A stretch of 64,000 bases of DNA, taken from NCBI GenBank assembly GCA_035539375.1, contig DATLIP010000099.1:1394-65393 (forward strand), read 5' to 3'. The stretch is from Bdellovibrionota bacterium (lineage in GTDB: Bacteria > Bdellovibrionota > UBA2428). The position numbers and the translations under genes are program-made. Of the stretch, positions 7,193-44,275 are shown piece after piece. The notes under the pieces are model-generated. The model ran no database searches. It was not told where the DNA came from and was given only the letters and a program-made list of their open reading frames with translations. How positions within the stretch are numbered: the first letter of the stretch is position 1; the number at the start of each line of letters is the position of its first letter.

Positions 7193-7241
7193 TATGGTCG
7201 CCAGGGAAGGCGATGTAAAAATCAGAACTTAGGCGGGGTCT

Positions 7242-7350
7242 GAACCAAAGATTAACTGTTTTGGTGCCCGTAAAATGCCGACAATAGTCTAACTAGCTGA
7301 GAGGTACGTCCGCGGAGCAGCTGAGAGATCAACCCAAAATGGAGCGTACC
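7242..7350 (+). promoter_or_regulatory. Conserved leader, copy B (paralogous to 4507-4615)
   Basis: Block order is the same as copy A. GCCGACAAT lies at 7277-7285. A hairpin at AGCTG...CAGCT (7295-7322) has one compensatory change relative to copy A. GGAGCGTACC precedes ATG 7351. Confidence 0.5.
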
Positions 7351-9524: not shown

Positions 9525-9562
9525 ACTCGGTGGTCCCGCTAGGGGCCGCCGAGTTTGTGTTT
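9525..9562 (+). terminator. Rho-independent terminator after lipoprotein gene 2
   Basis: Stem actcggtggtccc / ggggccgccgagt has 13 bp including two G-U pairs. The loop is gcta. It is followed by ttgtgttt. Confidence 0.7.
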
Positions 9563-9612
9563 AAGTAGTAAAAAAGTTTTTAAAAATAAAATTTAAGTAA
9601 AGGCAGAACGAT

Positions 9613-32593: not shown

Positions 32594-33699
32594 CCTTTCG
32601 TGAAGACGACTTGCGCATCGATGGACTGAGTTTTTTTCGCGGCGAAACGGTGATCTTAAAAAACATCTCGCTGCGACTCCCTGCTCACGCTCTCGGTGCG
32701 CTCGTAGGGCCGAGTGGTTCGGGCAAGACAACGCTCCTGCGGCTCATCGCGGGCTTCGAACGCCCTGCTGAAGGCAGCATCGTTCTCGGTGGCGAGACCT
32801 ATTCCTCACCAGTCCATGTGCTCCCTCCCGAACGACGTGGCATCGGCATCGTCTTCCAAGACTTCGCGCTTTTTCCGCATCTCAGTGTCGAAGAGAACGT
32901 CGCTTACGGCCTTTTTCGCGCCACTTCCGAGCAGCGTCGTCAGCGTAGTGCCTACGTGCTTGAACTCTTGGGCCTAGCGCCTTTTGCCAAGCGCTATCCG
33001 CAACAACTCTCCGGTGGTCAGCAGCAGCGAGTTGCCCTGGGCCGCGCGCTCGCGCCCAACCCCAAACTCCTGCTCCTTGATGAACCCTTTTCGCAGCTCG
33101 ATCCCGAATTGCGCGAAGAGCTCATCCAGGTCATGAACCTCGTGCTGCGTGAGACCAAGATCACCACGCTCCTTGTCACTCACCATCAAGAAGACGCCTA
33201 CGACCTAGCCGAACATCTTGGAGTTCTCGAGGGTGGTGACCTGCTGCAGTGGGGAGATCCCTTTGAGCTCTACCACTCACCTCGAAATCGTTTTGTCGCG
33301 GATTTTCTCGGCAAAGGGGCGCTCCTACCTGCCACGGTCGAGAGTGCGGGCTTTGTGCAAACTGAAATCGGTCGCCTGCCCTGCGCCAAAGAATGGCCTA
33401 TTGGCGAGGTGTGCGAATTGCTCGTGCGCCCCGATGATTTGGTGCACGTCGACGGCGATGGCCACTTTAGCGGCACACTGCTCAAGAAGCGTTTTCGCGG
33501 TTCTGCGCACCTCTATACCATCGAACTCCCGAGCCGGCGTCAGGTGCTCGCACTCGTGCCCAGCCACCACAACCACCGTGTTGGTGAGAGGGTGGGGCTT
33601 GAGGTCGACATGCGGCACGTGAATCTTTATCCCTTTTCGGGCGAGCTAAGGTCCTTCAACTTCGACACGCTCATCACACGTGGTCACGAAGATCTCTGA
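32590..33699 (+). CDS. fbpC: Fe(III) ABC transporter ATP-binding protein
   Basis: Walker A GPSGSGKTT, signature LSGGQQQRVALGRAL, Walker B LLLDEP and a C-terminal TOBE-like region. The ATGA start overlaps fbpB. The upstream part of ORF 31936-33699 is out-of-frame read-through of fbpB. Confidence 0.88.
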   Translation: MTFREDDLRIDGLSFFRGETVILKNISLRLPAHALGALVGPSGSGKTTLLRLIAGFERPAEGSIVLGGETYSSPVHVLPPERRGIGIVFQDFALFPHLSVEENVAYGLFRATSEQRRQRSAYVLELLGLAPFAKRYPQQLSGGQQQRVALGRALAPNPKLLLLDEPFSQLDPELREELIQVMNLVLRETKITTLLVTHHQEDAYDLAEHLGVLEGGDLLQWGDPFELYHSPRNRFVADFLGKGALLPATVESAGFVQTEIGRLPCAKEWPIGEVCELLVRPDDLVHVDGDGHFSGTLLKKRFRGSAHLYTIELPSRRQVLALVPSHHNHRVGERVGLEVDMRHVNLYPFSGELRSFNFDTLITRGHEDL

Positions 33700-34139
33700 A
33701 GCCTGCGCCGGATCACAATGCGATTGTAGCGTAACGCGCAGATGCAGGGCAGATTTGCGAGTACGGCGTAGGCAAGCATCACGAGCTTCGCCCAAAGCGG
33801 ATTCCATATAAAAAAGATCGGGCACGTGGCAAGGGTCACCCAATGGGCCGCTTCGCCGCGGCAGGTTTCCCTCGCAAAACGTTCTAAGTACGCAGGTTCT
33901 CGTGAGAGGATCTTGCCCTTAGGAAAGCCGCCACGAAACCAAGCGGCGGCGTCGGGCAAATGCGATTTCCAAAATTTGATACGCAATCCTCGGCTGTACA
34001 GATCGCCACCGAGTTCCCAGCGGCGCTCACGAAAGAGCGGTGAGTTCGGGTCAAAGATTCGAAGGGGCAAATCCGTGAAGATCTTGGACACCAGGAGATG
34101 CAGAATGGGCCAGCCAAGAAGGTTTGCGATCCAGACCAT
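33684..34139 (-). CDS. crtO: Glycosyl-4,4'-diaponeurosporenoate acyltransferase-like (CrtO-type) membrane protein
   Basis: A 151-aa membrane protein. PLFRERRWELGGDLY...FWKSHLPD...RETCRGEAAHW... matches the CrtO family as I recall it. It is the last gene of the crt operon. The upstream 110 codons of the ORF overlap crtQ and were discarded. Confidence 0.65.
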   Translation of the reverse strand: MVWIANLLGWPILHLLVSKIFTDLPLRIFDPNSPLFRERRWELGGDLYSRGLRIKFWKSHLPDAAAWFRGGFPKGKILSREPAYLERFARETCRGEAAHWVTLATCPIFFIWNPLWAKLVMLAYAVLANLPCICALRYNRIVIRRRLQRSS

Positions 34140-34141
34140 CG

Positions 34142-35215
34142 TCACGTGAGGGTCCGTCCTTTCCAGGTCTTCGGCGTCGCACCAATGCCCAGGGATTTCG
34201 CAAAAACGAATTGATAAAAAAACCACGCCACAGGAAAGAGTACCGCCGTAAGCAGGCGAAAGGATCCCAGGCGTCTCGCGAGCCAGGCCAGCTGACCGGC
34301 AAACAAGACATATGCCACCAGGAGTCCTTCCCGCACGCCGGGCATGGGCACAACGAGTGTCACGAGCGCAGCGAAGATCACCGTACCAAAGCCGGTGAGC
34401 CAGAGTACCGATGCGAGGAGCGCGCGTTTGTCCGTGTGCCGCGCGCCGCGTGCGAAAGCCTTGGTCCAACCTTCGATCAGCGAGTCCAGTCCCCCTGGGA
34501 ACATGCGCACTGAGAGCACGCCGCGCCCGAGGCGAGTCACAGTGCGTACCTTGGCGCTGTGAAAGCGTTCGGTCATGAAAAAGTTTTCCAACACTTCTCC
34601 ACTCACGGCCTGGTGCCCCCCGGCGCGTTCATAGTCGGCACGTCGAACCACAAGGCTCTGGCCCACGAGGCGCCGTGAGCCGGCAGACATCATGAGATTG
34701 AAAAAGATCGAAAGCTCTTCGTAGGCGTGCACCACGCGATGCCATGGCAGCACGGAAAGCGCGGTGGGAGCTTCGCGGTTGAGCTCTTCAAAATGAGTGA
34801 GGATCGATTGGAAGCCGTTGGCCTCGAAGCACACATCGGCATCCACAAAGAAAAAGAGCTCACCTCTCGCTGCCGTGGCACCTTGGTGGCAGGCCCAGTT
34901 TTTTCCCGTCCATCCCGCGGCGGGTAGTGGCTGAGCCCGAATCACGTGCGCACCGAGCTCGGTTGCCACGGAGGCGGTGTCATCATTCGAATCGTCGTCT
35001 ACGACAAGGACTTCTTCGGGGCGATGAGAGGTGGCAAAGATCGAGGGCAGGAGAACGCGCAGATTTTCCGCTTCATTGCGAGCGGGAATGATGATCGACA
35101 CGCGGAGCGCAGAAGGGGCGTTTGACTTGGGGACGCCACGTCGAGCTCCGATCACTCCAAAGCCCGCGAGCCAAGTGAGGGCGAGTCCCAGCATCAGCCA
35201 CGCGAGAGCGCTCAT
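34142..35215 (-). CDS. crtQ: Family 2 glycosyltransferase, CrtQ-like (diaponeurosporenoate glycosyltransferase)
   Basis: VSIIIPARNEAENL, VVDDDSNDDT and a membrane-spanning C-terminus. The position between crtP-like and crtO-like genes supports the call. Confidence 0.7.
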   Translation of the reverse strand: MSALAWLMLGLALTWLAGFGVIGARRGVPKSNAPSALRVSIIIPARNEAENLRVLLPSIFATSHRPEEVLVVDDDSNDDTASVATELGAHVIRAQPLPAAGWTGKNWACHQGATAARGELFFFVDADVCFEANGFQSILTHFEELNREAPTALSVLPWHRVVHAYEELSIFFNLMMSAGSRRLVGQSLVVRRADYERAGGHQAVSGEVLENFFMTERFHSAKVRTVTRLGRGVLSVRMFPGGLDSLIEGWTKAFARGARHTDKRALLASVLWLTGFGTVIFAALVTLVVPMPGVREGLLVAYVLFAGQLAWLARRLGSFRLLTAVLFPVAWFFYQFVFAKSLGIGATPKTWKGRTLT

Positions 35216-36720
35216 GAGCGGGATCCACGCTCGTCGCGATCGATGAGATCCGCCACATGTCGTCCACAGAGAACCACCATCGGCATGCCACCTCCGGGGT
35301 TCACGCTACCGCCCGCAAAAAACAAATTGCGGTATTTGTTGCTGCGCTTGGGTGCCTTGAACGCGAAATTTTTGAAACGATCGGAGACGACGCCGTATAT
35401 CGAACCTCCGTTGGAGCGGTAGCGCTTTTCGATGTCGAAGGGCGTCCAAAAGTCTTCCACCACGGTGTGCTTGCGCAATCCCTCGAGTCCCATGCGCTCC
35501 AACTTGTCGAGAACCCGTTCTTTGAGTGCGAGACAGTCTTCGCGGGTGTACTTGCCGTTGAGATAGGGAATGTGCGGAAGGATCTTGATGTTGTCATGCC
35601 CCTCGGGAGCCTGCGAAGGGTCTGTGCGCGTGGGGGCTACGAGATAAATCGTAGGATCGTCTGGCAACTTGCCCTCACGAAAAACACGATCGAAGTGTCG
35701 ATGCTGATCTTTAGAGTAAAAGAAATTGTGGTGCGCCAGTTGCGGGTAGGTGCGGTTGAGGCCCAGGTGCAAAACAATTCCGGAGCAAGCGGGTTCGAAT
35801 TTTTCTAGCTTGCGCATAAAACCGTCGCTCTCACCAAGCAGCTCGCGGTAGGCGGGAAGCACTTCCATGTTGGAGACCACGTAGTCGGCCTCAAAGTCAC
35901 GGCTGGGGCCGCGTTCGATACGGGAGCGGATTCCGGTGACGCGATCGCCCTGGCGGGTGATCGATTCCACTTCGGCGTTCAGGTGCACGGTCACACCGAG
36001 TTCGCTGAGACGTGTCTCAAAAGCGTGCGCCAATTCGTAGAGGCCGCCCTGAATGTACCACAGGCCAAATTCGAGTTGAATGTTGGGCATGAGGTTCATA
36101 AATCCTGGCGCATCGTTGGCCGAAGCGCCGACGTACTTGATGAAGTACTCAAAGATGGCCTGCAGGTATGGGTCGCGCGTGCGCTTGGCGATGCCGCCGC
36201 GCATGGAGTGCCAAAAGTCAAAGCCCCGCCCGTCGCGCCAGCCGTAAAACTTCACAAAATCCCAAAAGGTATCGAGTCCTTTTGCGAAGTATCCCCGCTC
36301 TGTGATGTCGTACTGTGCTTTGGAGTAGCGCAGCATCTCGCGGTATTCGGCAAAGGCGTGGGGGCCAAGGCGTTCGAGCTCACGCTCCATGTCCGCTTCG
36401 CGTTCCCACAAATCCACGGTGGTGCCGTCTTCAAAGAAGTTTCGCCACTGCGGATCCACGCGTACGAGCTTGATGTAGTCTTCGAGCCGACGCCCGTTTT
36501 GCTCAAAGAGGGGGCGAAACATATGTGGCAGTGTGAAAATCGAAGGGCCTAGGTCAAAGCTAAAACCTCCTTCGCGTAGCACGTTGAGTTTGCCGCCGAT
36601 GCGATCGTTGCGTTCAAAGATCTCCACGCGGTAGCCCTTCATAGCAAGCGATGTGGCGGCGGCAAGACCACCGAGTCCAGCACCGACAACAATCACCTTG
36701 GGAGTCTTGGGTTTGCTCAT
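35212..36720 (-). CDS. crtP: Phytoene-desaturase-family FAD oxidoreductase, CrtP/CrtNb-like (diapolycopene/diaponeurosporene oxygenase)
   Basis: Dinucleotide fold VIVVGAGLGGLAAA...FERNDRIGGK. The C-terminal GGSIYG...FFAGGSVNPGGGMP block is one I associate with CrtP-type members. Confidence 0.65.
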   Translation of the reverse strand: MSKPKTPKVIVVGAGLGGLAAATSLAMKGYRVEIFERNDRIGGKLNVLREGGFSFDLGPSIFTLPHMFRPLFEQNGRRLEDYIKLVRVDPQWRNFFEDGTTVDLWEREADMERELERLGPHAFAEYREMLRYSKAQYDITERGYFAKGLDTFWDFVKFYGWRDGRGFDFWHSMRGGIAKRTRDPYLQAIFEYFIKYVGASANDAPGFMNLMPNIQLEFGLWYIQGGLYELAHAFETRLSELGVTVHLNAEVESITRQGDRVTGIRSRIERGPSRDFEADYVVSNMEVLPAYRELLGESDGFMRKLEKFEPACSGIVLHLGLNRTYPQLAHHNFFYSKDQHRHFDRVFREGKLPDDPTIYLVAPTRTDPSQAPEGHDNIKILPHIPYLNGKYTREDCLALKERVLDKLERMGLEGLRKHTVVEDFWTPFDIEKRYRSNGGSIYGVVSDRFKNFAFKAPKRSNKYRNLFFAGGSVNPGGGMPMVVLCGRHVADLIDRDERGSRS

Positions 36721-36730
36721 AGAACGATCC

Positions 36731-37159
36731 TCACTTCACCATCCGCACGTTCAGCGGATGGATTTCCTCGTGCACGGTGAACTTGGACTCGTCGTAGTTC
36801 GGTGGTCCGAATCGGTACTTGGGATTGTTTGAGGCCCCCGCAGGTTCGCGCGGAATGCCGAGAAAGTTTTTATTGAGCGCGCCATCACCGTTCAAGTCTT
36901 CGAAAATCACGAGGGCGTATTCCCCAGCTTTGACGTCGTTGATCGAAAAGCGTGCTACGCTCTCACCTTCTTTAAGATCAAAGCGTGCGAAGTCTTTGCG
37001 CAAGGCGTGCTCCTTTTCCGAAGGAAACCCCTTTTTGTTATCAAAAAGCGCGTAAGCGATTTGGCCCGAGCGTCCTGTAAGATTCTCCACCTCAACGCGA
37101 AGTTCGGCAGCTAGGGTGGGCATGGCGATGAGTGTGGTCACGAGAGCCAAGGCTTTCAT
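36731..37159 (-). CDS. DUF2141 domain-containing secreted protein embedded in the carotenoid operon
   Basis: A signal peptide, then L.V.V.NL....G.I..ALF...,  ...DLNGDG.LNKNFLGIPREP.G.SNN, the DUF2141 signature. The ATGA start overlaps the upstream crtN-like gene. Confidence 0.75.
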   Translation of the reverse strand: MKALALVTTLIAMPTLAAELRVEVENLTGRSGQIAYALFDNKKGFPSEKEHALRKDFARFDLKEGESVARFSINDVKAGEYALVIFEDLNGDGALNKNFLGIPREPAGASNNPKYRFGPPNYDESKFTVHEEIHPLNVRMVK

Positions 37160-38700
37160 AGCCTCAACTCCGAGAATTCTTTAGCCTTAGGGAAGGTAAT
37201 GCCGTCGCGTTCGCAGAGCAGGTTTGCCGAAATGCGGGCCGATTCAAAGATCGTAGGCAAGCCGCTTCCTGGATGCGTACCGCCTCCTACCAAGTAGCAA
37301 TCCGAGATTTCTTCGAACTCGTTGTGCGGCCGGCGGTAGAGCATTTGCGAAATGTTATGGCCCATGTTGAAGGTGGCTCCCAAAAATACGGAGCGCTTGT
37401 TCTGCCAGTCGTCCGGGGTGAGTATCAGCTCCGAGCGGATGTGCTGTCGAACATTCTTGTAAGGGCTACGCTCTTCGAGAATCTTGAGAATCCGCTCGCG
37501 GTAGACAGCTTTTTCTGTGGCCCAGTCGATGCCACTCGTGTTGTTGGGCACGGGGCAGAGCACATAGAGAGCCGAATGTCCCTCGGGTGCGCAGCCCGGA
37601 TCGAGGGTTACCGAGTTGCGTACGTAGACGGAGACATCTTCAGAGGCCACCTTGCGATGCGATATGTCTTCGAGGTTTTTTTGGTAATCCTTGGCAAAGA
37701 CAATCATGTGGTGCTCGCAGTCGGGGTAGGTGCGGTCCAGGCCGAGGTACATCATGAAGGTCGAGCAGGAGTAGTTCAAAGTTTTGAGCTTTTCGGGAGC
37801 GTATTTTTTGATTCGTTCACGCGGAAACAGATGTTCCATGGCATGACCGAAGTCCGCATTTACAAAGACCGCATCGGCATCCACCGACTCTCCATCGGCA
37901 AGCTCGACGCCCACGGCGCGCTGACCCTCGAGGCGTACCCGCTTCACTGGGCGCTCGGTATGAATCTGGGCACCGAATTCCTTAGCAACCGTGGCCAGGG
38001 CGTCGGTGATTTTATTAAGTCCACCCATCACATGATAAATGCCATGAGCGTGTTCGGTGTAGGGGATCATTGCAAAGAGCCCCGGACAATCCCAGGGCGA
38101 CATGCCGAGGTATTTGGACTGAAAGGTGAAAGCTAGGCGTAGCTCTTCGGAGCGGAAGTATTCTCCCAGCACATCGTAAAGCGATTTGCCCGCGGCCAAA
38201 TGCGGGAAGGCTTTCAGTAGAGTGGTGCTAAAGAATTGGCTGAGACGGCCGTAGTCGCGCTGCAGGCAGGGGTAGAGGCGTTCGAAGCGCTTTGATTCGC
38301 GCTCGTGAAATTTGTCGAGTGCCGGTCCCTCACCGGGAAAGTGCTTTTCGATCTCGAGCTTCATCCGCTCGCGGTCTTCAGTGACGAGCATCTCCTTGGC
38401 GTCAAAAATCAGTCGATACATAGGGTCGAGACGGCGACAGTCGAGGTAATCGCGGATGTCACGGCCGCATTCTGTAAAGAGCTCGTCGAGCAGATACTTC
38501 ATCATCAGAAAGGTCGGGCCCAGGTCGAAACGGTATTTGCCGTCGAGCACGACCTCGGCATTGCGCCCACCTAGGGCGGATTCTTTTTCGTAGACCGTTA
38601 CCCGGTAACCCCGGGCACCCAGGATCATGGCGGCCGCTAGCCCCCCCGGTCCGGCTCCGATGATCACCACGTGTTTTTGCGCTTGAGAAGATGGGCTCAT
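37156..38700 (-). CDS. crtN: Phytoene/dehydrosqualene desaturase family protein (CrtN/CrtI-like)
   Basis: HVVIIGAGPGGLAAA...YEKESALGGR. YSCSTFMMYLGLD, SVYVRNSVTLDPGCAPEG and LVGGGTHPGSGLP align with S. aureus CrtN blocks from memory. ATG 38700 was chosen. Confidence 0.75.
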   Translation of the reverse strand: MSPSSQAQKHVVIIGAGPGGLAAAMILGARGYRVTVYEKESALGGRNAEVVLDGKYRFDLGPTFLMMKYLLDELFTECGRDIRDYLDCRRLDPMYRLIFDAKEMLVTEDRERMKLEIEKHFPGEGPALDKFHERESKRFERLYPCLQRDYGRLSQFFSTTLLKAFPHLAAGKSLYDVLGEYFRSEELRLAFTFQSKYLGMSPWDCPGLFAMIPYTEHAHGIYHVMGGLNKITDALATVAKEFGAQIHTERPVKRVRLEGQRAVGVELADGESVDADAVFVNADFGHAMEHLFPRERIKKYAPEKLKTLNYSCSTFMMYLGLDRTYPDCEHHMIVFAKDYQKNLEDISHRKVASEDVSVYVRNSVTLDPGCAPEGHSALYVLCPVPNNTSGIDWATEKAVYRERILKILEERSPYKNVRQHIRSELILTPDDWQNKRSVFLGATFNMGHNISQMLYRRPHNEFEEISDCYLVGGGTHPGSGLPTIFESARISANLLCERDGITFPKAKEFSELRL

Positions 38701-38813
38701 GGCTAAAATGTAGGCGCAACCCGCTAGGATGTCGATTGACCTACAAACCAGCTTAAAAATAAGCCAAAATCCTGACGCGTAAACGTTTTTTCTCAAAACA
38801 CCGAAAGAGAGTT

Positions 38814-39677
38814 ATGGAACAGCTCACGATCGGGATGGCCGTCTACGAAGATTTCGACGGCGTGTATTTTTCGATACAGGCTCTGCGCTATTATCACCAA
38901 GAAGCGCCGATGAGTCGCATCAAGTTTCTCGTTGTGGACAACTGTCCATCCGGAAAACATTCTGAGACGATCCGAAAATTCGTCGAAGGCATCGGGGGCA
39001 CATACATCGGCACTGACGAAGTCAAAGGCACGGCCGTACGCAATTTGATTTTTGAACGCGCGCAAACCGAGCTTGTTCTCTGTATGGATTCGCATGTGCT
39101 CATCGAGCCTGGCGCGGTTCGTCAGCTTCTTGAGTATTACGACAAACACCCCCAGAGCCAAGACTTGCTGCAGGGGCCGCTAGTTTACGACGACATTTAT
39201 CACATGGCTTCGCACTTTCAGCCCGAGTGGCGCGGTGGCATGTACGGTACTTGGGCGTGGGACGAACGCGCACGTCACAAGAACGATGCGCCCTTCGCGA
39301 TTCCTTCGCAGGGCCTCGGACTTTTTTCTTGCCGTAAGTCGGCGTGGCTCGGATTCAACCGCCGTTTCTCCGGATTTGGCGGTGAAGAATTTTACATTCA
39401 CGAAAAGTTTCGTCAGGCGGGTCGCCAGGCGCTGTGTCTGCCCTTTCTGCGTTGGCTGCATCGTTTTGGTCGCCCCAATGGCACCATCTACCGCAACAAG
39501 TGGGAAGATCGCATTCGTAATTACCTCATTGGTTGGCGCGAATTGAATTTGCCCACCGAGGAGCTCGAAGCGCATTTTGCGACCATCGTAGGTCCAAAAA
39601 TCGTGGAGCAAGTGAAAGACGGAGTGCTGAGCGAAGATGCGGCGCTTGATCCAGCTGCCAAACGCAAAGCAGCCTAA
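38814..39677 (+). CDS. Family 2-like glycosyltransferase (divergent from crt operon)
   Basis: A GT-A-like N-terminus (IGMAVYEDFDGVYFSIQAL...FLVVDNCPSGKHSE...CMDSH), soluble, 287 aa. Confidence 0.6.
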   Translation: MEQLTIGMAVYEDFDGVYFSIQALRYYHQEAPMSRIKFLVVDNCPSGKHSETIRKFVEGIGGTYIGTDEVKGTAVRNLIFERAQTELVLCMDSHVLIEPGAVRQLLEYYDKHPQSQDLLQGPLVYDDIYHMASHFQPEWRGGMYGTWAWDERARHKNDAPFAIPSQGLGLFSCRKSAWLGFNRRFSGFGGEEFYIHEKFRQAGRQALCLPFLRWLHRFGRPNGTIYRNKWEDRIRNYLIGWRELNLPTEELEAHFATIVGPKIVEQVKDGVLSEDAALDPAAKRKAA

Positions 39678-39688
39678 TCGGTTTCGAC

Positions 39689-39973
39689 TTAGCGTAAAAA
39701 AATCACTCCGAAGAGCGTTCCCGCCATCACCACAAGAATCAGGTTGAAGGCGGCCAGGAGTTTTAGTTTTTTCGTAAGATGCTCGTCTTCGCGAGCTTCA
39801 GGCAGCAATCGTTTGGAGATGTAGATCGCGAGCAAAAGATTTCCCAATCCGGGCAGCGATACGATCGAGATTTTGGTGAGCATGAAAACAATGCCTAGTT
39901 TTTGATTGGGCGGAGGCGGTGCCAGCGTGGGGGGAGCCTCGGGCGGTAGATTTTCGCTGGGGAGGTTCACCAT
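39689..39973 (-). CDS. Small membrane protein (Pro-rich N-terminus, two predicted TM helices)
   Basis: The ORF has an ATG start. Hydrophobic stretches are GIVFMLTKISIVSLPGLGNLLLAIYI and LLAAFNLILVVMAGTLFGVIFL. No family recognised. Confidence 0.45.
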   Translation of the reverse strand: MVNLPSENLPPEAPPTLAPPPPNQKLGIVFMLTKISIVSLPGLGNLLLAIYISKRLLPEAREDEHLTKKLKLLAAFNLILVVMAGTLFGVIFLR

Positions 39974-40138
39974 AATATGATCGCACGTTTTGCTCCAATT
40001 TTGGAGATGAGCATATTGGCGGTCCTTTAGAATGCGGCTATCCTTAAAAGGAGCTTAATTTCAATGGTTTGGCCGCTGCATCAATCTTAATCAAATCTTC
40101 AACGCCCCGCACCCTAATGTTGCCGATACGATAGAGGT

Positions 40139-41641
40139 ATGAAAAAGTCTTCTACATCGCGAAGGGTGCTCCCGGGTCTTGGATCACCACAGTGGCTCAA
40201 TCGCTGCGCGACGTGGGCACTGCTGGTGGTCTCGGTCTCCCAACTCACAAGTTGTGGCTATTATATGGCGACCGCCGACCAAGAAGCGATCCCACCTCTT
40301 GGTGATGAAGACTCGGCTCTTTCGCTTTCGATTCGCGGCAAGGTGAATCTCGACGACGATACCTTGGCCGACATTCTCACCCTCGACCCTAGCGCCAAAC
40401 CCCTCAAAGGTTGGGCGATTCGTTTGACCTCAGTGCTCGGTAGCCCCACGGTATATACAGACACTTCGGTGCTTGTGGCCTTTACCGACGACGAGGGTAA
40501 TTTCACCATTCAAGGCGTTCCCGACGATTCCTATCGCGTGATCGCGGTGCCTCCAGCTGATTTCGTTCCGGCCCTCGACTCCGAAATGGATACCGACGGC
40601 GTCAACGATGGTTCGGTGCTCGGCTATCTGAGCCTCTCGGACACGCCATATTTGACCTTTGATTTTACCAAGAAAGTTCCCTCCACCACACTCGCTCCGG
40701 ATTGCGATCCCAACTGCTTCCGCATCTCCGGTGTGGTGTACATGAACAAATCTAGCGACGCGCAAACGGCACTCGACGGAGCTGACGGCCTCTTCGAAGG
40801 CGCGGTCGTTGAGCTCTATTATGGTCCCTGGGGCTCGCGCACCGAAGGTTCGCGTGTGCTCGACGGTGACGGTTATCCCATACGCGCCGTAACCGACTCC
40901 AATGGTCGTTATGAATTCGAAGTTGCGGCGGACTCCTATAAAGTTGTCGTCGCTCCCGAGCTCACCAACATGCAATTCAACTGGGAATCGACGTCCGACG
41001 GACGCTTCGACGGCGCGACCAACGTGCTCGTGAGCAGCGCCGACGTTGAAAACGTGAACTTCGGTATTGTTTACAATGCCGATCTCGAAGATCGCGCAGC
41101 CATCGTTTACGATCCGAACACCACAATGGATCCGGGGACGACCGCCGACCCCGGCACGACTCCCGCGGTGACCACCACGCCTTACGCAACCACGACTCCG
41201 GAAGCGACAACTGCAGCTCCTACGACTCCGGCGCCTACGACCGCGGCACCGACCACTCCAGCTCCGACAACCGCAGCTCCTACGACTCCGGCTCCGACGA
41301 CGGTTCCTCCGACAACACCGGAACCTACAACCGCAGCTCCTACGACTCCGGCGCCTACGACCGCGGCACCGACCACTCCAGCTCCGACAACCGCAGCTCC
41401 CACGACTCCGGCGCCTACGACCGCGGCGCCTACCACGCCGATGGCAACGACACCGGAACCTACCACTTCGTATTACGCAGGTACGACTTCGGATCCTTAT
41501 GCGACGACGACTTACGATCCTTACGGAACGACACCGTCACCTACCACTTCGTATTATGCCGGTACGACTTCGGATCCGTACGCCACCACAACCTACGACC
41601 CTTACGGTACGACTCCGTGGCCTACCACGACTGGCTACTAA
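40139..41641 (+). CDS. Lipoprotein with two CarboxypepD_reg/SdrD-B-like beta-sandwich domains and a mucin-like Pro/Thr-rich repeat tail
   Basis: Lipobox QLTSC. FTDDEGNFTIQGVPDDSYRVIAVP and VTDSNGRYEFEVAADSYKVVVAP are typical T-D-x-x-G-x-Y-x-F motifs. The C-terminal 150 aa is (TTPAPTTAAP)n followed by 2 x 27-aa Tyr/Thr repeats. Confidence 0.8.
   Translation: MKKSSTSRRVLPGLGSPQWLNRCATWALLVVSVSQLTSCGYYMATADQEAIPPLGDEDSALSLSIRGKVNLDDDTLADILTLDPSAKPLKGWAIRLTSVLGSPTVYTDTSVLVAFTDDEGNFTIQGVPDDSYRVIAVPPADFVPALDSEMDTDGVNDGSVLGYLSLSDTPYLTFDFTKKVPSTTLAPDCDPNCFRISGVVYMNKSSDAQTALDGADGLFEGAVVELYYGPWGSRTEGSRVLDGDGYPIRAVTDSNGRYEFEVAADSYKVVVAPELTNMQFNWESTSDGRFDGATNVLVSSADVENVNFGIVYNADLEDRAAIVYDPNTTMDPGTTADPGTTPAVTTTPYATTTPEATTAAPTTPAPTTAAPTTPAPTTAAPTTPAPTTVPPTTPEPTTAAPTTPAPTTAAPTTPAPTTAAPTTPAPTTAAPTTPMATTPEPTTSYYAGTTSDPYATTTYDPYGTTPSPTTSYYAGTTSDPYATTTYDPYGTTPWPTTTGY
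41189..41458 (+). repeat. In-frame 30-nt tandem repeat (about 9 units, TTPAPTTAAP) with a 120-nt higher-order period
   Basis: Units acgactccggcgcctacgaccgcggcaccg/accactccagctccgacaaccgcagctcct recur. The block starting near 41207 is repeated almost exactly 120 nt later. Confidence 0.9.
41459..41620 (+). repeat. 2 x 81-nt tandem repeat encoding PTTSYYAGTTSDPYATTTYDPYGTTP(S/W)
   Basis: Direct reading of nucleotide and protein sequence. The two units differ at only a few positions. Confidence 0.9.
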
Positions 41642-42345
41642 GGCTGAGTCAACAGGGCGTGGGTCTCATACATGGCTTCAGGCTCCATGCGGTGCAGATG
41701 CACTGTGAGATGCTTAGCCAAAAAAGCGCGGTTCGGAAGTTTCATTCCTGAGACTTCGATATAATCCTGCTTGTTCCAAAAGTTTAGGCTAGGCACCAGC
41801 TGGTGATTTGCGTGTAGCACGATGCCGTTCGTATGTAGACATTGCCCGACGGCAAGATCTTCGTAGGGTTGTTGCGCAAAGTTTTCATCTTCCACCACGC
41901 AGCGCATGGCGCGTCTATCAATAAAGTATCCCGCTCCGCCGCTTCCGTACTCGAAGTGGGCTTCGGGAGTGGGCATTGGATAACCCTCGTACGCTGTGTT
42001 CACTTCGTGCGCGGCAAAGGCACGCGCGTTGATCAGGGTGTCGTCGTCGCATTTGAACACGTGGGTGGCCGAGTTTTGCTCGAGCACCCACTTAAAGAAA
42101 AGTTGAGACTTTTGCGCCAGTGCTTCGTAGGTGTCAGGGCAGCGTAGGCTCAGGCGCCCGATATCGCGATCAAAATCAAAGAGCGCATGCTGATTCTCGT
42201 CAGCGATCACCTGCACAACGCGCGTGCGCGGACAGATTTCGAGCAAGTCCGGAATCCAGGTATCGACACAGGCCTGCAGACGATCCACGTATTTTTGGCA
42301 AGAAACCACCCCCACGATCAAATCCAAATTCTCAACTCGAGCCAT
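41638..42345 (-). CDS. Fringe-like / GT31-like glycosyltransferase (cytoplasmic, 235 aa)
   Basis: DTW, PDTYEALAQKSQLFFKWVL, DxD motif KCDDDT, GSGGAGYFI and EDLAVGQCL reproduce the conserved block order of the Fringe/beta-1,3-GalT (GT31) fold. ATG 42345 was chosen; the upstream part of the ORF overlaps the next gene. Confidence 0.6.
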   Translation of the reverse strand: MARVENLDLIVGVVSCQKYVDRLQACVDTWIPDLLEICPRTRVVQVIADENQHALFDFDRDIGRLSLRCPDTYEALAQKSQLFFKWVLEQNSATHVFKCDDDTLINARAFAAHEVNTAYEGYPMPTPEAHFEYGSGGAGYFIDRRAMRCVVEDENFAQQPYEDLAVGQCLHTNGIVLHANHQLVPSLNFWNKQDYIEVSGMKLPNRAFLAKHLTVHLHRMEPEAMYETHALLTQP

Positions 42346-42412
42346 GTGCTTTGCGTATCCCCCGTTATTACAATTGTAGCGCGCGCTCCGGCCAAGGTAA
42401 ACGCCATCGCGC

Positions 42413-43297
42413 TTAGCGCATGGCGCGCAGAAGCTCTGGAGGATTGGCCACGAGATCAAGCAAGCGATCGCAACGCTCAGAAAGTCTGCGGATACCGCGG
42501 TGCACATGCAGCAGGCGGATTTCGGCGTTCTTTTCGGCGACGAGCTCGCGAAAGCTGCGCTGGTTGGCGGGGGCGGCGAGCGCATCGAGCGCTTCCATGA
42601 TGATGTTATAAGCCCGGTAGAGCCGGAAGTGATGGCGCAACCACTCCTCTTCGTTGGGCGGCACCAGGGCTTTTGCACCTTCAATATGGTAGTTCTCCCG
42701 CAGCCATGAGCGGGCCTCGGCGTAAGTGGCAAACGGCACGTAGGCCTTGCCCAGGCCCAGCACGTTGCCTCGTTGGTCGTCGGGCACGAAATCCACCCAA
42801 TCGTCGATCAGGATGACATTTTCGAGGTCGTCATGCGCTAGGCGCAAATCTTTTTTGCCGCGGCGAAAAAAAACGTCGTCCCAATCGAGCACTGGGGATC
42901 CGTCGGGTTTTTTGAGGTGGTGCTTGGAGAAAACTTCGTGGCCGAGTTCCCTAAAGGTGCGCTCTGGTCCATCTTCGGTGTTGAGCTTGTCTAGCAAGCT
43001 GTGGTTGCGCTCTTCGCTCCCGCCGCTGAAATAAGACTGCGAGGCTACCAGGGGGTGGGCAGCCAGGGCGGGCAAGATCCAGCTCGCTCCCGCAGCGATC
43101 TTGTAGCGCCGGCCGTAAACTTCCACGAGGCCCGGGGTGTCCTCGGGCAAATCGTCGGCGTGGTCCACCAGGGTGCCGTCCAGATCCCAGATCAGATGTA
43201 CGCGCCCTGGGGTTTCGCGCGCGTGCGTGTTGGGAATCAAGAAAAGCCCGCAAATCCCCAAAATTACGAACCTTAAGCGCCGCCGAGTCACGTCCAC
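42413..43297 (-). CDS. Secreted HAD-superfamily phosphatase, NIF/FCP1-like
   Basis: Signal RLRFVILGICGLFLIPNTHA. HAD motif I is WDLDGTLVDH. GKKDLRL...NVILIDDW...P...NVL resembles the NLI-interacting-factor-like phosphatase layout. Confidence 0.45.
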   Translation of the reverse strand: MDVTRRRLRFVILGICGLFLIPNTHARETPGRVHLIWDLDGTLVDHADDLPEDTPGLVEVYGRRYKIAAGASWILPALAAHPLVASQSYFSGGSEERNHSLLDKLNTEDGPERTFRELGHEVFSKHHLKKPDGSPVLDWDDVFFRRGKKDLRLAHDDLENVILIDDWVDFVPDDQRGNVLGLGKAYVPFATYAEARSWLRENYHIEGAKALVPPNEEEWLRHHFRLYRAYNIIMEALDALAAPANQRSFRELVAEKNAEIRLLHVHRGIRRLSERCDRLLDLVANPPELLRAMR

Positions 43298-43339: not shown

Positions 43340-44275
43340 TTAAATGAGTCGTTCCGGACCAATCGGCACGATGCGGTAGGGGTTAATGGAGGGCTGAGAG
43401 TAGTAATAGTGCTGCTTGATGTGGTTGAAATGCGTGCTCTCGCGGAAGGGTTTGCGCTGGTAGAGAGCGTTGAGGTAGCGGTGCAGGTCAGGGTACTCGC
43501 GGATCATCTTGTGGTTGCATTTGAAGTGTCCGTAGTAAACGCTGTCAAAGCGTACGAGCGTGACAAAGAGCCGAACGTCGGCCTCGGTCAAGCGCTCACC
43601 CACAAGATAGCTTTTGCCCTTGAGCCGCTCTTCGATCTTGTCGAGGGCATCAAAAAGGCCCTTCACGTTTTTGTCGTAGGCGGCCTGGGTCTGGGCAAAG
43701 CCCGCCTTGTAGACCCCGTTGTTGATGTTTTCGTAGACAAAGGCGTTCACCTTGTCGATTTCCTGGCGCAGCTCTACAGGGTAGTAGTCGTCGCGATTGC
43801 CCGTAAGCTCGTCGAAGGCCGAATTGAAAATTCTCACAATCTCCGACGACTCGTTGTTGACGATGGTCTTGAGTTTGGTGTCAAAAAGCACCGGTACGGT
43901 AACCTTCCCCGTGTAGGTGGGGCTCGCTTCGGTATAGATCTGGTAGAGATAGTTCTTACCCATTAGGTTATCTGCCGTCACGCCGGCGAAGTCCGCCAAG
44001 AAACTCCACCCGTGGTCTCCGAGATTCGGTGAGACCAGCGAAAGCGAGACGACCTCTTCGAGTTGCTTCAGCTTGCGCATGATCAAAGTGCGCGTGGCCC
44101 AGGGGCAAGCGTACGACACGTAAAGGTGGTAGCGACCAGATTCGGGTTTGTGTACGGAATTTTTGTTGTCGATGGTTTCGCGAAAGCTCGATTCGTGTCG
44201 AAGGAATTCACCGTTCGAGGCCGCTTTGGGCACGACGTCCCCCACCATCCATTTGCCGTGTTCTAGATATCCCAT
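43340..44275 (-). CDS. yqjG: Glutathionyl-hydroquinone reductase (Xi-class GST, YqjG/ECM4 family)
   Basis: GRYHLYVSYACPWATRTLIMRKLK, VTVPVLFD, NNESSEI, NNGVYKAGFA, TEADVRLFVTLVRFD and HFKCN align block for block with E. coli YqjG. Confidence 0.93.
   Translation of the reverse strand: MGYLEHGKWMVGDVVPKAASNGEFLRHESSFRETIDNKNSVHKPESGRYHLYVSYACPWATRTLIMRKLKQLEEVVSLSLVSPNLGDHGWSFLADFAGVTADNLMGKNYLYQIYTEASPTYTGKVTVPVLFDTKLKTIVNNESSEIVRIFNSAFDELTGNRDDYYPVELRQEIDKVNAFVYENINNGVYKAGFAQTQAAYDKNVKGLFDALDKIEERLKGKSYLVGERLTEADVRLFVTLVRFDSVYYGHFKCNHKMIREYPDLHRYLNALYQRKPFRESTHFNHIKQHYYYSQPSINPYRIVPIGPERLI

Follow-up and report, generated by a model that had tools for sequence, protein, structure and literature searches.

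The DNA analysed here, a stretch of 64 kb referred to as the window, comes from a genome that belongs to a group of predatory bacteria. The locus under study comprises the following genes and features:

38814-39677, + strand: GT2-like glycosyltransferase, an ORF of 287 aa annotated as 'glycosyltransferase' (HVJ65795.1)
39689-39973, - strand: small ORF with two transmembrane (TM) segments, taken from the ORF list and overlooked in an earlier note on this DNA
40139-41641, + strand: lipoprotein, an ORF of 500 aa with a Pfam CarboxypepD_reg match, a lipobox and a Thr/Pro/Ala-rich tail
40253-40255, + strand: Cys39 codon of the lipobox LTSC, which goes with the signal peptide
about 41129-41638, + strand: C-terminal Thr/Pro/Ala-rich tail (residues ~331-500), whose last residue is aromatic
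41192-41628, + strand: tail-encoding tandem DNA repeats with 30-nt and 81-nt units (Tandem Repeats Finder)
41638-42345, - strand: GT31-like glycosyltransferase, 235 aa from the MARVENLDL start, with Pfam matches to Galactosyl_T and Fringe
42413-43297, - strand: HAD/NIF-like phosphatase, 294 aa, with a DLDGT motif and a sub-threshold Pfam NIF match

The ORF list and a check of the stop codons confirmed the positions that the earlier note had assigned to four of these genes, to the Pro/Thr repeats and to a convergent stop overlap, and all motifs quoted in it (DTW, KCDDDT, GGAGY, EDLAVGQC, DLDGTLV, and ILIDDW) were found in the ORF translations. The lipoprotein and GT31 genes are convergent with overlapping stop codons, the TAA of the former occupying 41639-41641 and the stop of the latter (CTA on the + strand) 41638-41640. 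The phosphatase-like gene is located on the same strand as the GT31 gene and 67 bp upstream of it.

In the lipoprotein, a hydrophobic stretch precedes the lipobox (L-T-S-C39), which three orthologues retain. The protein contains two transthyretin/CarboxypepD_reg-like beta-sandwich regions (CarboxypepD_reg 35.3 bits, two stretches), and Pfam also gives weak SdrD_B and SpaA matches. That its tail is mucin-like, as had been claimed, is borne out by the Pro/Thr repeats and by the composition of the last 170 residues (65 Thr, 39 Pro, 29 Ala, and 12 Tyr); it is the sole ORF in the window with at least 10 Thr per 20-aa segment. For the 30-nt repeat, which encodes TTPAPTTAAP and is assigned to 41192-41436, Tandem Repeats Finder detected 7.8 copies at 41192-41424, with super-periods of 60 and 120 nt and a score of up to 406, and 2.3 copies of the 81-nt repeat, which encodes a 27-aa Tyr/Thr-rich unit, at 41446-41628. 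The N-terminal part of the lipoprotein is 92% identical to the orthologue in L001 and 57% identical to P0157. The orthologue tails vary either in repeat number (window versus L001) or in the repeat unit itself (TSTTEEPTTTSGP in P0157), but are Thr-rich in every case. Such conservation of Thr-richness, but not of the repeat unit, fits a compositional acceptor, and the lipoprotein is proposed to be the acceptor.

The GT2 protein (Pfam PF00535 Glycos_transf_2, 34.1 bits; GA 23.3) is a soluble enzyme of the GT-A type without TM segment or signal peptide. Within its family D92-x-H94 and H216 are invariant, and GFGGEE at positions 187-192 is near-invariant. It shares 78% identity with the orthologue in a relative (L054) and 40-70% with 40+ proteins from viral contigs; no match to the family was found in 50,697 GenBank phage records, and there is no PHROG family for it. 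It belongs to a phage-rich GT2 branch that had not been characterised before. Its best-scoring PDB profile matches, the wall-teichoic-acid GlcNAc transferases TarP and TarS, were limited to the N-terminal half, whereas the sole PDB chains aligned across both halves were ppGalNAc-transferases (ppGalNAc-T10, T7, T4, and PGANT9; E = 3.7e-4 to 0.045). This similarity is weak, with an E-value of 3.7e-4 for a 9-sequence profile versus 0.018-0.045 for a 20-sequence profile. The DxH, GFGGEE, and distal His of the GT2 align with three elements of ppGalNAc-T10, namely its DxH, its 'Gal/GalNAc-T motif' WGGE, and the histidine of its 'VGH', which we take to be the Mn ligand positions of GT27. GT2 is proposed to be an initiating protein O-glycosyltransferase.

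The small ORF next to the GT2 gene codes for two hydrophobic helices. L054 has a homologous ORF (9562-9831; 34% identity) at the corresponding place and in the corresponding orientation, with conservation from MLTK onward. Since the conserved core begins at M31, the start codon is likely near 39883, giving 64 aa; the NCBI version of the protein (HVJ65796.1) also has 64 aa. This protein had no match in Pfam or NCBIfam, and the viral loci contain no homologue of it. The trio of GT2, 2-TM ORF, and Thr-rich lipoprotein is retained in order and orientation in L054 (78%, 34%, and 57% identity, respectively) between flanks that all differ: crtN and GT31 in the window versus an uncharacterised gene, lgt, and lspA in L054. 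These three genes form the conserved bacterial core, for which the evidence comes from two independent lineages and two or three bacterial loci. The claimed clustering of glycosyltransferases around the repeat protein held in this comparison for GT2; GT31 is missing from the L054 cassette.

The GT31 protein is soluble, with neither signal peptide nor TM segment. It matched Galactosyl_T with 26.9 bits (GA 23) and Fringe with 22.7 bits (GA 21) in Pfam, and all 30 closest family members matched PF01762. Conserved positions include R22, T29-W30, K98, D100-D101-D102, SGGxGY, and E162-D163, and the RxxxTW, DDD, and EDxxxG motifs are present. The best PDB match of the GT31 profile was C1GalT1 (7q4i; E = 1.6e-21), the enzyme that extends GalNAc-Thr, followed by B3GALT6, B3GNT2, and B3GALT5. 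The GT31/Fringe identity was supported by the HMMs, and the assignment is solid. The description of the family as predominantly eukaryotic was overstated for GT31, because soluble GT31-like proteins comprise 922 cluster representatives (E <= 0.001) that range over Planctomycetota, Acidobacteriota, Verrucomicrobiota, and phages. Their neighbours in these three phyla are mostly other glycosyltransferases (GT2, GT4, GT11, GT6), sulfotransferases, and sugar-nucleotide enzymes, a setting typical of glycan loci. An 88% identical orthologue (P0001) shares the MARVENLDL start, and its locus (L001) has the same convergent arrangement with the lipoprotein gene. GT31 is an accessory, lineage-specific component and no conserved member of the bacterial cassette; it is proposed to act as the second-step (elongating) enzyme.

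The viral-contig relatives of GT2 were dereplicated into 25 lineages. In 10 of the 25, the ORF immediately upstream of GT2 and on the same strand encodes at least 10 Thr per 20-aa segment, at a distance of 4-42 bp in nine lineages and of 334 bp in the tenth (L092). The same degree of Thr-richness was reached by 4 of 305 other ORFs of these phage loci (Fisher p = 7.5e-10, odds ratio 50), the p-value being descriptive because the threshold was set after the pattern had been seen. The Thr-rich proteins are encoded after tape-measure genes, which corresponds to a distal-tail or fibre position, and are otherwise unrelated, some being Cys-rich tail proteins and others small proteins of 83 aa. In L103, a Thr-rich protein is followed by GT2 (50% identical) and by GT31, whose start overlaps the GT2 stop, and in L104, L108, and L110 a Thr/Gly-rich protein precedes a single ORF with both Glycos_transf_2 and Galactosyl_T. 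Adjacency to or fusion with a GT31 domain concerns two phage lineages, and provides Rosetta-stone evidence that both families function in one pathway. In the phages closest to the window GT2 (HTVC027P-like, 58-70% identity), the gene lies between portal and GroES-like genes, with no Thr-rich ORF near it within the available flanks. The gene order in the viral contigs is the decisive evidence for the predicted link of GT2 and GT31 to Thr-rich proteins. Together with the GT2-lipoprotein unit, this poly-Thr association and the GT2-GT31 adjacency and fusion support the core idea of the earlier note, which combined two glycosyltransferases with a Thr-rich substrate.

On balance, the locus is probably a compact protein O-glycosylation cassette consisting of GT2, the 2-TM protein, an outer-membrane or surface lipoprotein with a hypervariable Thr/Pro tail and, in this lineage, GT31. 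The genes present, their family assignments, their conserved linkage, and the fusion are observed; we infer which protein is the acceptor, in which order the enzymes act, and which sugars and compartment are involved. In the cytoplasm, GT2 would transfer a first sugar from a nucleotide sugar directly onto the hydroxyl groups of Thr residues in the disordered tract, and GT31 would then attach another one, probably by a beta-1,3 linkage. After export and lipidation, the tail of the glycosylated lipoprotein would form a mucin-like brush at the surface, reaching beyond the two domains of Ig-like or transthyretin-like type, although Sec export of a densely glycosylated tract of 170 residues would be unusual. 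In the uncultured phages, both enzyme families may likewise modify the Thr-rich parts of proteins in the distal tail or fibre; because such virion proteins are synthesised in the cytoplasm, all phage steps would have to be cytoplasmic. No description of direct cytoplasmic O-glycosylation of a Thr tract by a GT2 enzyme, extended by GT31, was found in the literature, and the bacterial locus and the phage pairs point to an undescribed protein-glycosylation system common to bacteria and viruses.

The transferases could instead make a non-protein glycan (a polysaccharide, a decoration of LPS or capsule, or a phage receptor or DNA modification) that the Thr-rich proteins bind, anchor, or recognise. 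This is consistent with the glycan-type surroundings of GT31 in three other phyla, with TarP and TarS as top GT2 matches, and with the HTVC027P-like phages, but appears unlikely because the poly-Thr tract is the sole feature common to the unrelated neighbours and because neither bacterial locus contains a flippase, a polymerase, or a priming transferase. Less probable again is a lipid-linked route, in which the 2-TM protein would anchor GT2, a polyprenyl-phosphate sugar would be made and flipped, and an unlinked GT-C enzyme would glycosylate the exported tail. Human DPM1 is held at the membrane by DPM3, and actinobacterial Ppm1/Pmt and streptococcal GtrB/PgtC2 are lipid-linked periplasmic routes; the conserved small 2-TM partner adjoining GT2 and an acceptor that is extracytoplasmic after export would suit such a scheme. 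However, the phage GT2 homologues have no TM partner and adjoin virion tail proteins, which cross no membrane before lysis, a GT31 fusion makes little sense for a polyprenyl-phosphate-sugar synthase, no DPMS or GtrB structures were among the PDB profile matches of GT2, and a GT-C gene is absent from both bacterial loci (window and L054). A tail that is an unmodified spacer, next to glycosyltransferase genes brought there by chance or shared mobility, is improbable: it would agree with the low number of bacterial loci, the confinement of the GT31 linkage to the window lineage and the 88% relative, and a 53% GT31 homologue in GCA_041443065.1 that is split in two ORFs and convergent with a Peptidase_M64 gene instead, but the enrichment of Thr-rich neighbours over the 25 phage lineages, the fusions adjoining Thr-rich proteins, and the persistence of the trio where all flanking genes have changed speak against it.

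The phosphatase-like protein has an N-terminal signal or anchor sequence; no PDB match was obtained by sequence, and its AF2 model was unusable (pLDDT 42). It contains the DLDGT and ILIDDW motifs; in Pfam, NIF (17.3 bits for the window protein; GA 21.8) is the best match of all three homologues yet below threshold in each. In a relative (L055), 490 kb separate a 48% identical homologue from the lipoprotein; this homologue lies immediately upstream of a crtN-DUF2141-crtP-GT2(crtQ-like)-crtO locus, which carries the same ABC transporter as the window. The third homologue adjoins a response regulator, and the GT2 and GT31 loci surveyed, whether from bacteria or viruses, contained none. By synteny, the phosphatase is judged to belong with the neighbouring C30-carotenoid operon, outside the glycosylation unit, and the window order is best read as the result of an insertion that placed GT31-lipoprotein-TM-GT2 as one block between crtN and the NIF-like gene. 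The four-component module originally envisaged, in which the secreted phosphatase would also act on the glycoprotein or glycan, for example by dephosphorylating a phosphoglycan or phospho-Thr, is thus already disfavoured and very improbable, its short distance to GT31 on the same strand notwithstanding.

The proposed O-glycosylation cassette resembles eukaryotic mucin-type O-glycosylation (GT27, then the GT31 enzyme C1GalT1) in its Thr/Pro-rich tandem-repeat acceptor, in a GT-A initiating enzyme with DxH, [W/F]GGE, and distal His, and in a GT31 as second enzyme. It differs in that GT2 and GT31 are small, soluble, predicted cytoplasmic proteins without type-II anchor, stem, or ricin-type lectin domain, in the marginal GT2-GT27 similarity, and in its bacterial and phage setting instead of the Golgi. 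Soluble cytoplasmic transferases encoded beside a repetitive surface substrate that is modified before secretion are also known from GtfA/GtfB, which glycosylate serine-rich repeat adhesins, from the heptosyltransferases AAH/TibC (AIDA-I/TibA), and from HMW1C, which modifies HMW1 in the cytoplasm prior to export. Those enzymes are, however, GT-B proteins of GT4/GT8-type, GT9-like, or GT41 affiliation with Ser-rich or beta-helix acceptors, whereas here a GT-A GT2 and a GT31 accompany a Thr/Pro-rich protein and no accessory Sec system. Actinobacterial protein O-mannosylation (Ppm1 and Pmt) likewise involves Pro/Thr-rich lipoprotein acceptors and a GT2 enzyme, but depends on a membrane transferase of family GT39 (GT-C) that is coupled to Sec translocation, and none is linked at the window locus. 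[quoted passage not shown] Membrane-anchored proteins or lipoproteins with such tails and a GT2-family enzyme are common to both systems, but in streptococci the sugar is lipid-linked and is transferred outside the cytoplasm by a GT-C enzyme (PMC12041528), whereas the GT2 described here lacks TM helices and its phage relatives imply direct cytoplasmic action. A phage precedent is the virion O-glycosylation encoded by mycobacteriophage Che8, whose glycosyltransferases act in the host cytoplasm on structural proteins of the phage itself (Freeman et al. 2023, as summarised in PMC13445384); the target named in that summary is a capsid protein, whereas poly-Thr tracts in proteins of the distal tail or fibre are the targets suggested by the loci analysed here.

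The window is part of a Bdellovibrionota genome assembled from a metagenome (locus tags VM901_111xx), for which the public annotation names only the soluble GT2-like gene ('glycosyltransferase') and lists the other four genes of interest as 'hypothetical protein'. An earlier note on the sequence had proposed a four-gene glycosylation module here, and all features it described were found in the window. The module reading itself was supported for the GT2, the GT31 and the Thr-rich substrate, but not for the NIF-like phosphatase.

Genes at the locus and its flanks (window coordinates)
33684-38796, minus strand: C30-carotenoid (crt) cluster with CrtO acyltransferase, CrtQ-like GT2, two amine-oxidase-type desaturases and DUF2141
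38814-39677, plus strand: soluble GT2-like protein
39689-39973, minus strand: small hydrophobic ORF with two transmembrane segments (2-TM)
40139-41641, plus strand: lipoprotein
41638-42345, minus strand: GT31-like protein
42413-43297, minus strand: HAD/NIF-like protein, signal or anchor sequence at the N-terminus
43340-44275, minus strand: GST-like protein

The crt cluster is of the staphyloxanthin type; its CrtO acyltransferase belongs to PF18927, its CrtQ-like GT2 is a membrane protein, and its desaturases are amine oxidases of the CrtN/CrtP type. The same cluster with the same flanking ABC transporter occurs in a relative from a JGI assembly (locus L055). A prophage origin of the locus was rejected, as housekeeping or crt genes flank it in both genomes. 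Promoter and terminator counts were not above those of shuffled sequence and thus uninformative, and an NCBIfam search returned nothing useful.

The assignment of gene 42413-43297 to the NIF/FCP1 phosphatases failed in HMM searches, where PF03031 scored 17.3 bits, below the gathering threshold (GA) of 21.8, and all three homologues remained sub-threshold (best E 0.0029). The motif DxDx(T/V), invariant as D38-L-D40-G-T42 in three homologues, occurs throughout the HAD superfamily and is not diagnostic of NIF. No PDB match was obtained beyond a phosphoglycolate phosphatase that aligned at motif I only (E = 0.5), and an AF2 model built from three sequences (pLDDT 42) was too poor for a fold search. 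Only three members of the family, whose proteins are secreted or anchored, could be detected in a set of 5.8 billion proteins, and the family has no solved relative.

Members of the NIF-like family
42413-43297: window
10001-10858: L055, the JGI relative
94-921: locus L056

In two genomes the NIF-like gene heads the crt operon. The homologue in the relative (48%) immediately precedes the crt operon and the ABC transporter, 490 kb from the GT2-lipoprotein trio on the same contig, and this synteny identifies the gene as a neighbour of the carotenoid genes, not of the lipoprotein. Conversely, the soluble GT2 was rejected as a carotenoid gene, as the cluster has a CrtQ-like GT2 of its own (34142-35215) and the relative's cluster lacks the soluble GT2, which is found at the said distance of 490 kb.

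The GT31 assignment of gene 41638-42345 was borne out by its match to Galactosyl_T (PF01762; 26.9 bits, GA 23), a family that was also matched by all 30 of its nearest family members (best E = 1.9e-15). The beta-3-GT motifs RxxxxxxTW, (F/Y)xKxDDD(T/S) (the DxD motif) and EDxxxG are all present, and R22...T29-W30, FKCDDDT (98-103), SGGAGY and E162-D163-LAVG were invariant or near-invariant in a trimmed alignment of 18 sequences. A profile of the family matched the solved structures of C1GalT1 (7q4i; 1.6e-21), B3GALT6 (2.7e-17), B3GNT2 (5e-13) and B3GALT5 (1e-12), and the PDB matches of the single sequence were weak, every one of them being a GT31. Based on the Pfam scores, the conserved motifs and these profile matches, the predicted membership in GT31 can be regarded as secure. 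For the narrower label of a Fringe protein, the subfamily of O-fucose beta-1,3-GlcNAc transferases, the gene itself scored 22.7 bits (PF02434; GA 21), but just 6 of the 30 family members match PF02434, and Manic Fringe (2j0a) reached only 8.4e-6 with the family profile that gave 1.6e-21 for C1GalT1. As judged from these comparisons, the data favour GT31 in general without singling out Fringe.

A k-mer-based homologue search with the GT31 protein recovered only three relatives, and an exhaustive HMMER search 922 cluster representatives (E <= 0.001). The family is no rarity among prokaryotes: species-representative genomes contained 50 loci, mostly in Planctomycetota, Thermoanaerobaculia/Acidobacteriota and Verrucomicrobiota, and viral contigs a further 49. 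At the bacterial loci, the neighbours are chiefly other glycosyltransferases. Three Akkermansia/Verrucomicrobiales MAGs (L050, L051, L052), whose loci resemble the viral contig L148, encode as the latter does GT31-containing proteins of ~670 aa, and one to two genes away Thr- or GT-repeat-rich proteins of ~600 aa that end in '...CNCECAGLLEAIQQAV...'; these loci are possibly a further GT31/Thr-rich pairing, in prophages. In GCA_041443065.1, a GT31 homologue with 53-59% identity is split into two overlapping ORFs (P0021, 102 aa; P0002, 148 aa) and faces a Peptidase_M64 gene in convergent orientation. The split indicates a frameshift, due either to a pseudogene or to an assembly error.

The GT2 protein matched Glycos_transf_2 (PF00535) over residues 9-142 with 34.1 bits (GA 23.3), as did nine of nine tested homologues. 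D92-S-H94 (a DxH rather than a DxD motif) and H216 do not vary among 20 dereplicated family members, in which GFGGEE (187-192) is near-invariant. The DSH aligns to LDSH of GalNAc-T10, and in the HMMER alignment to 2d7i GFGGEE falls on 'WGGEQYEISFKVWMCGG' and H216 on '...SRVGH'; GFGGEE is the counterpart of WGGE(Q/N) with F instead of W as first residue. We take WGGE... to be the Gal/GalNAc-T motif of GT27 and the downstream His to be an Mn ligand. The highest PDB scores were obtained by the wall-teichoic-acid GlcNAc transferases TarP and TarS, which align to the generic N-terminal nucleotide-binding half only; polypeptide GalNAc-transferases (T10, T7, T4, PGANT9) were the only PDB chains aligned over both halves. 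Their E-values were 3.7e-4 (T10), 6.4e-4 (T7) and 2e-3 (PGANT9) with a profile of nine sequences, and weaker with a deeper one of 20 (T4 0.018, T7 0.045). Since these values (3.7e-4 to 0.045) are marginal, and since the 287-aa protein lacks a C-terminal ricin-type lectin domain and a type-II membrane anchor as well as any TM segment or signal peptide, the enzyme was described as GT27-like in its catalytic motifs and was not filed as a GT27 member. Single-sequence PDB searches with the GT2 and NIF-like proteins gave no usable match, and a single-sequence AF2 model of the GT2 (pLDDT 46) was too poor for a fold search. Distant homologues of this GT2 family (24-27%) occur in two Thermoanaerobaculia genomes (L013 18752-19558; L014 11758-12432), 1-9 kb from GT31-like genes.

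The signal peptide of the putative acceptor ends in a lipobox that reads ...ATWALLVVSVSQ-L-T-S-C39-GYY, matching the pattern [LVI][ASTVI][GAS]C, and LTSC with Cys39 is kept in the orthologues of L001, a short ENA contig, and of the JGI relative (P0157). Two CarboxypepD_reg/transthyretin-like beta-sandwich regions were detected by Pfam in the body of the protein, which is followed by a tail of 170 residues with 38% Thr and 23% Pro, coded by 30-nt and 81-nt tandem repeats. The description of this tail as mucin-like proved accurate insofar as tandem Pro/Thr-rich repeats are present; their unit and copy number vary among orthologues, the tail in the relative being built from another unit (TSTTEEPTTTSGP) with equal Thr-richness. 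As had been noted, the TAA of the gene shares nucleotides with the stop of the convergent GT31 gene. An antisense ORF within the repeats (41182-41466, minus strand, 94 aa, 'VVGAGVVGAAVVG' repeats) is a reverse-frame shadow of the Pro/Thr repeat and no gene.

Conservation of gene order was assessed in two relatives. Contig L001 carries an 88%-identical GT31 and retains the convergent overlapping lipoprotein gene, but is too close to the window for its synteny to be informative. On a 2.73-Mb contig of the JGI relative, homologues of the GT2 (78%), the 2-TM ORF (34%) and the lipoprotein (57%, N-terminal part) form a trio arranged and oriented as in the window; conservation of the 2-TM ORF begins at MLTK, in agreement with the 64-aa call of NCBI. 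The flanks of this trio are all different, with a gene of unknown function and lgt on one side and lspA on the other, and neither a GT31 nor a NIF-like gene is present at the locus. Linkage of GT2 and Thr-rich lipoprotein is thus upheld across changed flanks, but does not extend to GT31. As the simplest reading, the lineage of the window would carry a block GT31-lipoprotein-TM-GT2 as an insertion that separates the NIF-like gene from crtN. Only two independent bacterial lineages with the cassette are known, and tblastn searches of the lipoprotein N-domain, the 2-TM, NIF-like and GST proteins across all GT2 and GT31 loci found close relatives only. At the trio locus (L054), lgt (6586-7374) lies two genes upstream and lspA (11608-12144) immediately downstream in convergent orientation. 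The products of lgt and lspA are the two lipoprotein-maturation enzymes, and the placement of the trio between them may be coincidence.

Additional evidence for a functional link between the two glycosyltransferases came from viral contigs. In L103, three consecutive genes code for a Thr-rich Cys-repeat protein, a GT2 (50% identical to that of the window) and a GT31 whose start overlaps the GT2 stop. The Thr-rich protein (67-1146) carries about eight 'GCMDxxAxNYNxxATxDDGSC' repeats and has no confident Pfam family. In three further contigs (L104, L108, L110), the gene of a Thr/Gly-rich protein precedes one single ORF of 523-537 aa, with an N-terminal half of the GT2 family (DSH, GGxE, WxH; Glycos_transf_2 at residues 7-166) and a C-terminal half of GT31 (Galactosyl_T at 332-416). 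The fused gene adds an independent line of evidence for the enzymes flanking the lipoprotein in the window acting in one pathway.

The GT2 family is also widespread in phages apart from these fusions. A metagenome scan retrieved two contigs with 63-70% identity, both of phages and with the gene order terminase, portal, GT2, GroES-like protein and major head protein, whose terminase is ~53% identical to those of the Pelagibacter phages HTVC027P and HTVC023P; IMG/VR scans added 42 loci with 40-64% identity. Neither the GT2 (by tblastn) nor a poly-Thr phage protein used as query had a match among 50,697 GenBank phage records, and the GT2 family has no PHROG. The gene ending just upstream of a phage GT2 often codes for a protein of 360-1300 aa with tracts like TTTTTTTTTTTTAAPTTTTTAAP or ...TTTTTTTPPPPPP. 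After dereplication of the viral GT2s at 85% identity, a Thr-rich upstream neighbour (10 or more Thr within a stretch of 20 aa) was found in 10 of 25 lineages, compared to 4 of 305 other ORFs at the same loci (odds ratio 50; Fisher p = 7.5e-10, a descriptive value because the threshold was set after the pattern had been noticed, and the effect is large). PHROGs searches with the poly-Thr proteins mostly gave no match; where annotated, tape-measure proteins precede them and one matches a 'tail protein' family, which assigns them the place of distal-tail or fibre genes in siphovirus-like modules. No similarity to the bacterial lipoprotein was detectable in them, and the Thr tract is the common denominator of both. 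In the HTVC027P-related phages, which are closest to the GT2 of the window, the available flanks contain no Thr-rich acceptor.

Several architectural variants were observed among the phage genes. In L063 and L064 the GT2 is preceded, within one fusion protein, by another GT2 domain of a different kind, and many phage GT2s carry C-terminal extensions of 200-370 aa lacking a confident Pfam match. Weak matches of these extensions to Methyltransf_24 (L095) and a sulfotransferase (L101) hint at further sugar tailoring. Phage ORFs of 83-84 aa consisting mostly of TTTTTTTAEPTTTTTT repeats are located near the GT2 (L092 9060-9314 and 11226-11477; L094 1645-1896) and possibly represent minimal acceptors or decoration proteins.

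Phage GT2 genes of the two kinds
Head module, between portal and GroES-like gene
L057 4925-5785
L059 6001-6852
L063 3677-5299
With C-terminal extension
L089 9998-11725
L090 9998-11923
L095 6384-8357
L098 9998-11953
L100 9998-11917
L101 9935-11410

In the most economical model, the GT2 would attach an O-linked sugar directly to Thr tracts in the cytoplasm, and the GT31 would lengthen the glycan thus begun. This model builds on phage tail proteins being made and assembled in the cytoplasm, on the solubility of both glycosyltransferases, and on the ability of GT31 to be fused to GT2; it implies that the bacterial lipoprotein would be modified ahead of Sec export. Precedents for modification before export are AIDA-I/AAH and HMW1/HMW1C, and for so dense a tract it would be unusual. 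The alternative is a lipid-linked route, in which a DPM1/DPM3-like or GtrB-like GT2 works with a GT-C transferase. The conserved 2-TM protein of the bacterial cassettes is its main support, but the route fits the phage data poorly, as the phage GT2 loci have no such partner; the GT2 has no TM helices, and DPMS or GtrB chains were absent among the PDB matches of its profiles (E <= 10 or E <= 1).

Under the direct cytoplasmic model, bacteria and tailed phages might even share a two-enzyme pathway with a mucin-type logic and possibly a mucin-type ancestry, in which a ppGalNAc-T-like DxH enzyme would act first on poly-Thr tracts and a C1GalT1-like GT31 would be the extender, a proposition that we put forward as improbable. 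If true, the eukaryotic GT27 -> GT31 core-1 pathway would have a counterpart, or even its source, in prokaryotes or viruses, and phage tail fibres and surface lipoproteins of a predatory-bacterium group would carry true mucin-like glycan brushes. Should the inference of glycosylation hold, the GT2s would form a new protein O-glycosyltransferase family recognising simple poly-Thr tracts, which is invisible to present phage annotation for want of a PHROG, of relatives in GenBank phages and of neighbours other than 'hypothetical protein'. Many uncultured aquatic and environmental phages would then glycosylate distal-tail or fibre proteins, with effects on how they recognise hosts, resist proteases and evade antibodies, and a Bdellovibrionota lineage would apply the same chemistry to a surface lipoprotein. 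Such a pair would also be attractive for glyco-engineering in E. coli, the enzymes being small, soluble and sometimes fused and an acceptor tag such as (TTPAP)n trivially encodable, and would allow ideas on how the GT27/GT31 mucin pathway evolved to be put to the test. No description of a pairing of GT2, GT31 and Thr-rich protein was found in the searchable literature, where the system thus appears to be undescribed. Among known systems, glycosylation of Ser/Thr-rich disordered regions by GtrB-like and GT-C enzymes has been shown in streptococci (PMC12041528), and this system is akin to the lipid-linked route and not to the direct transfer favoured here.
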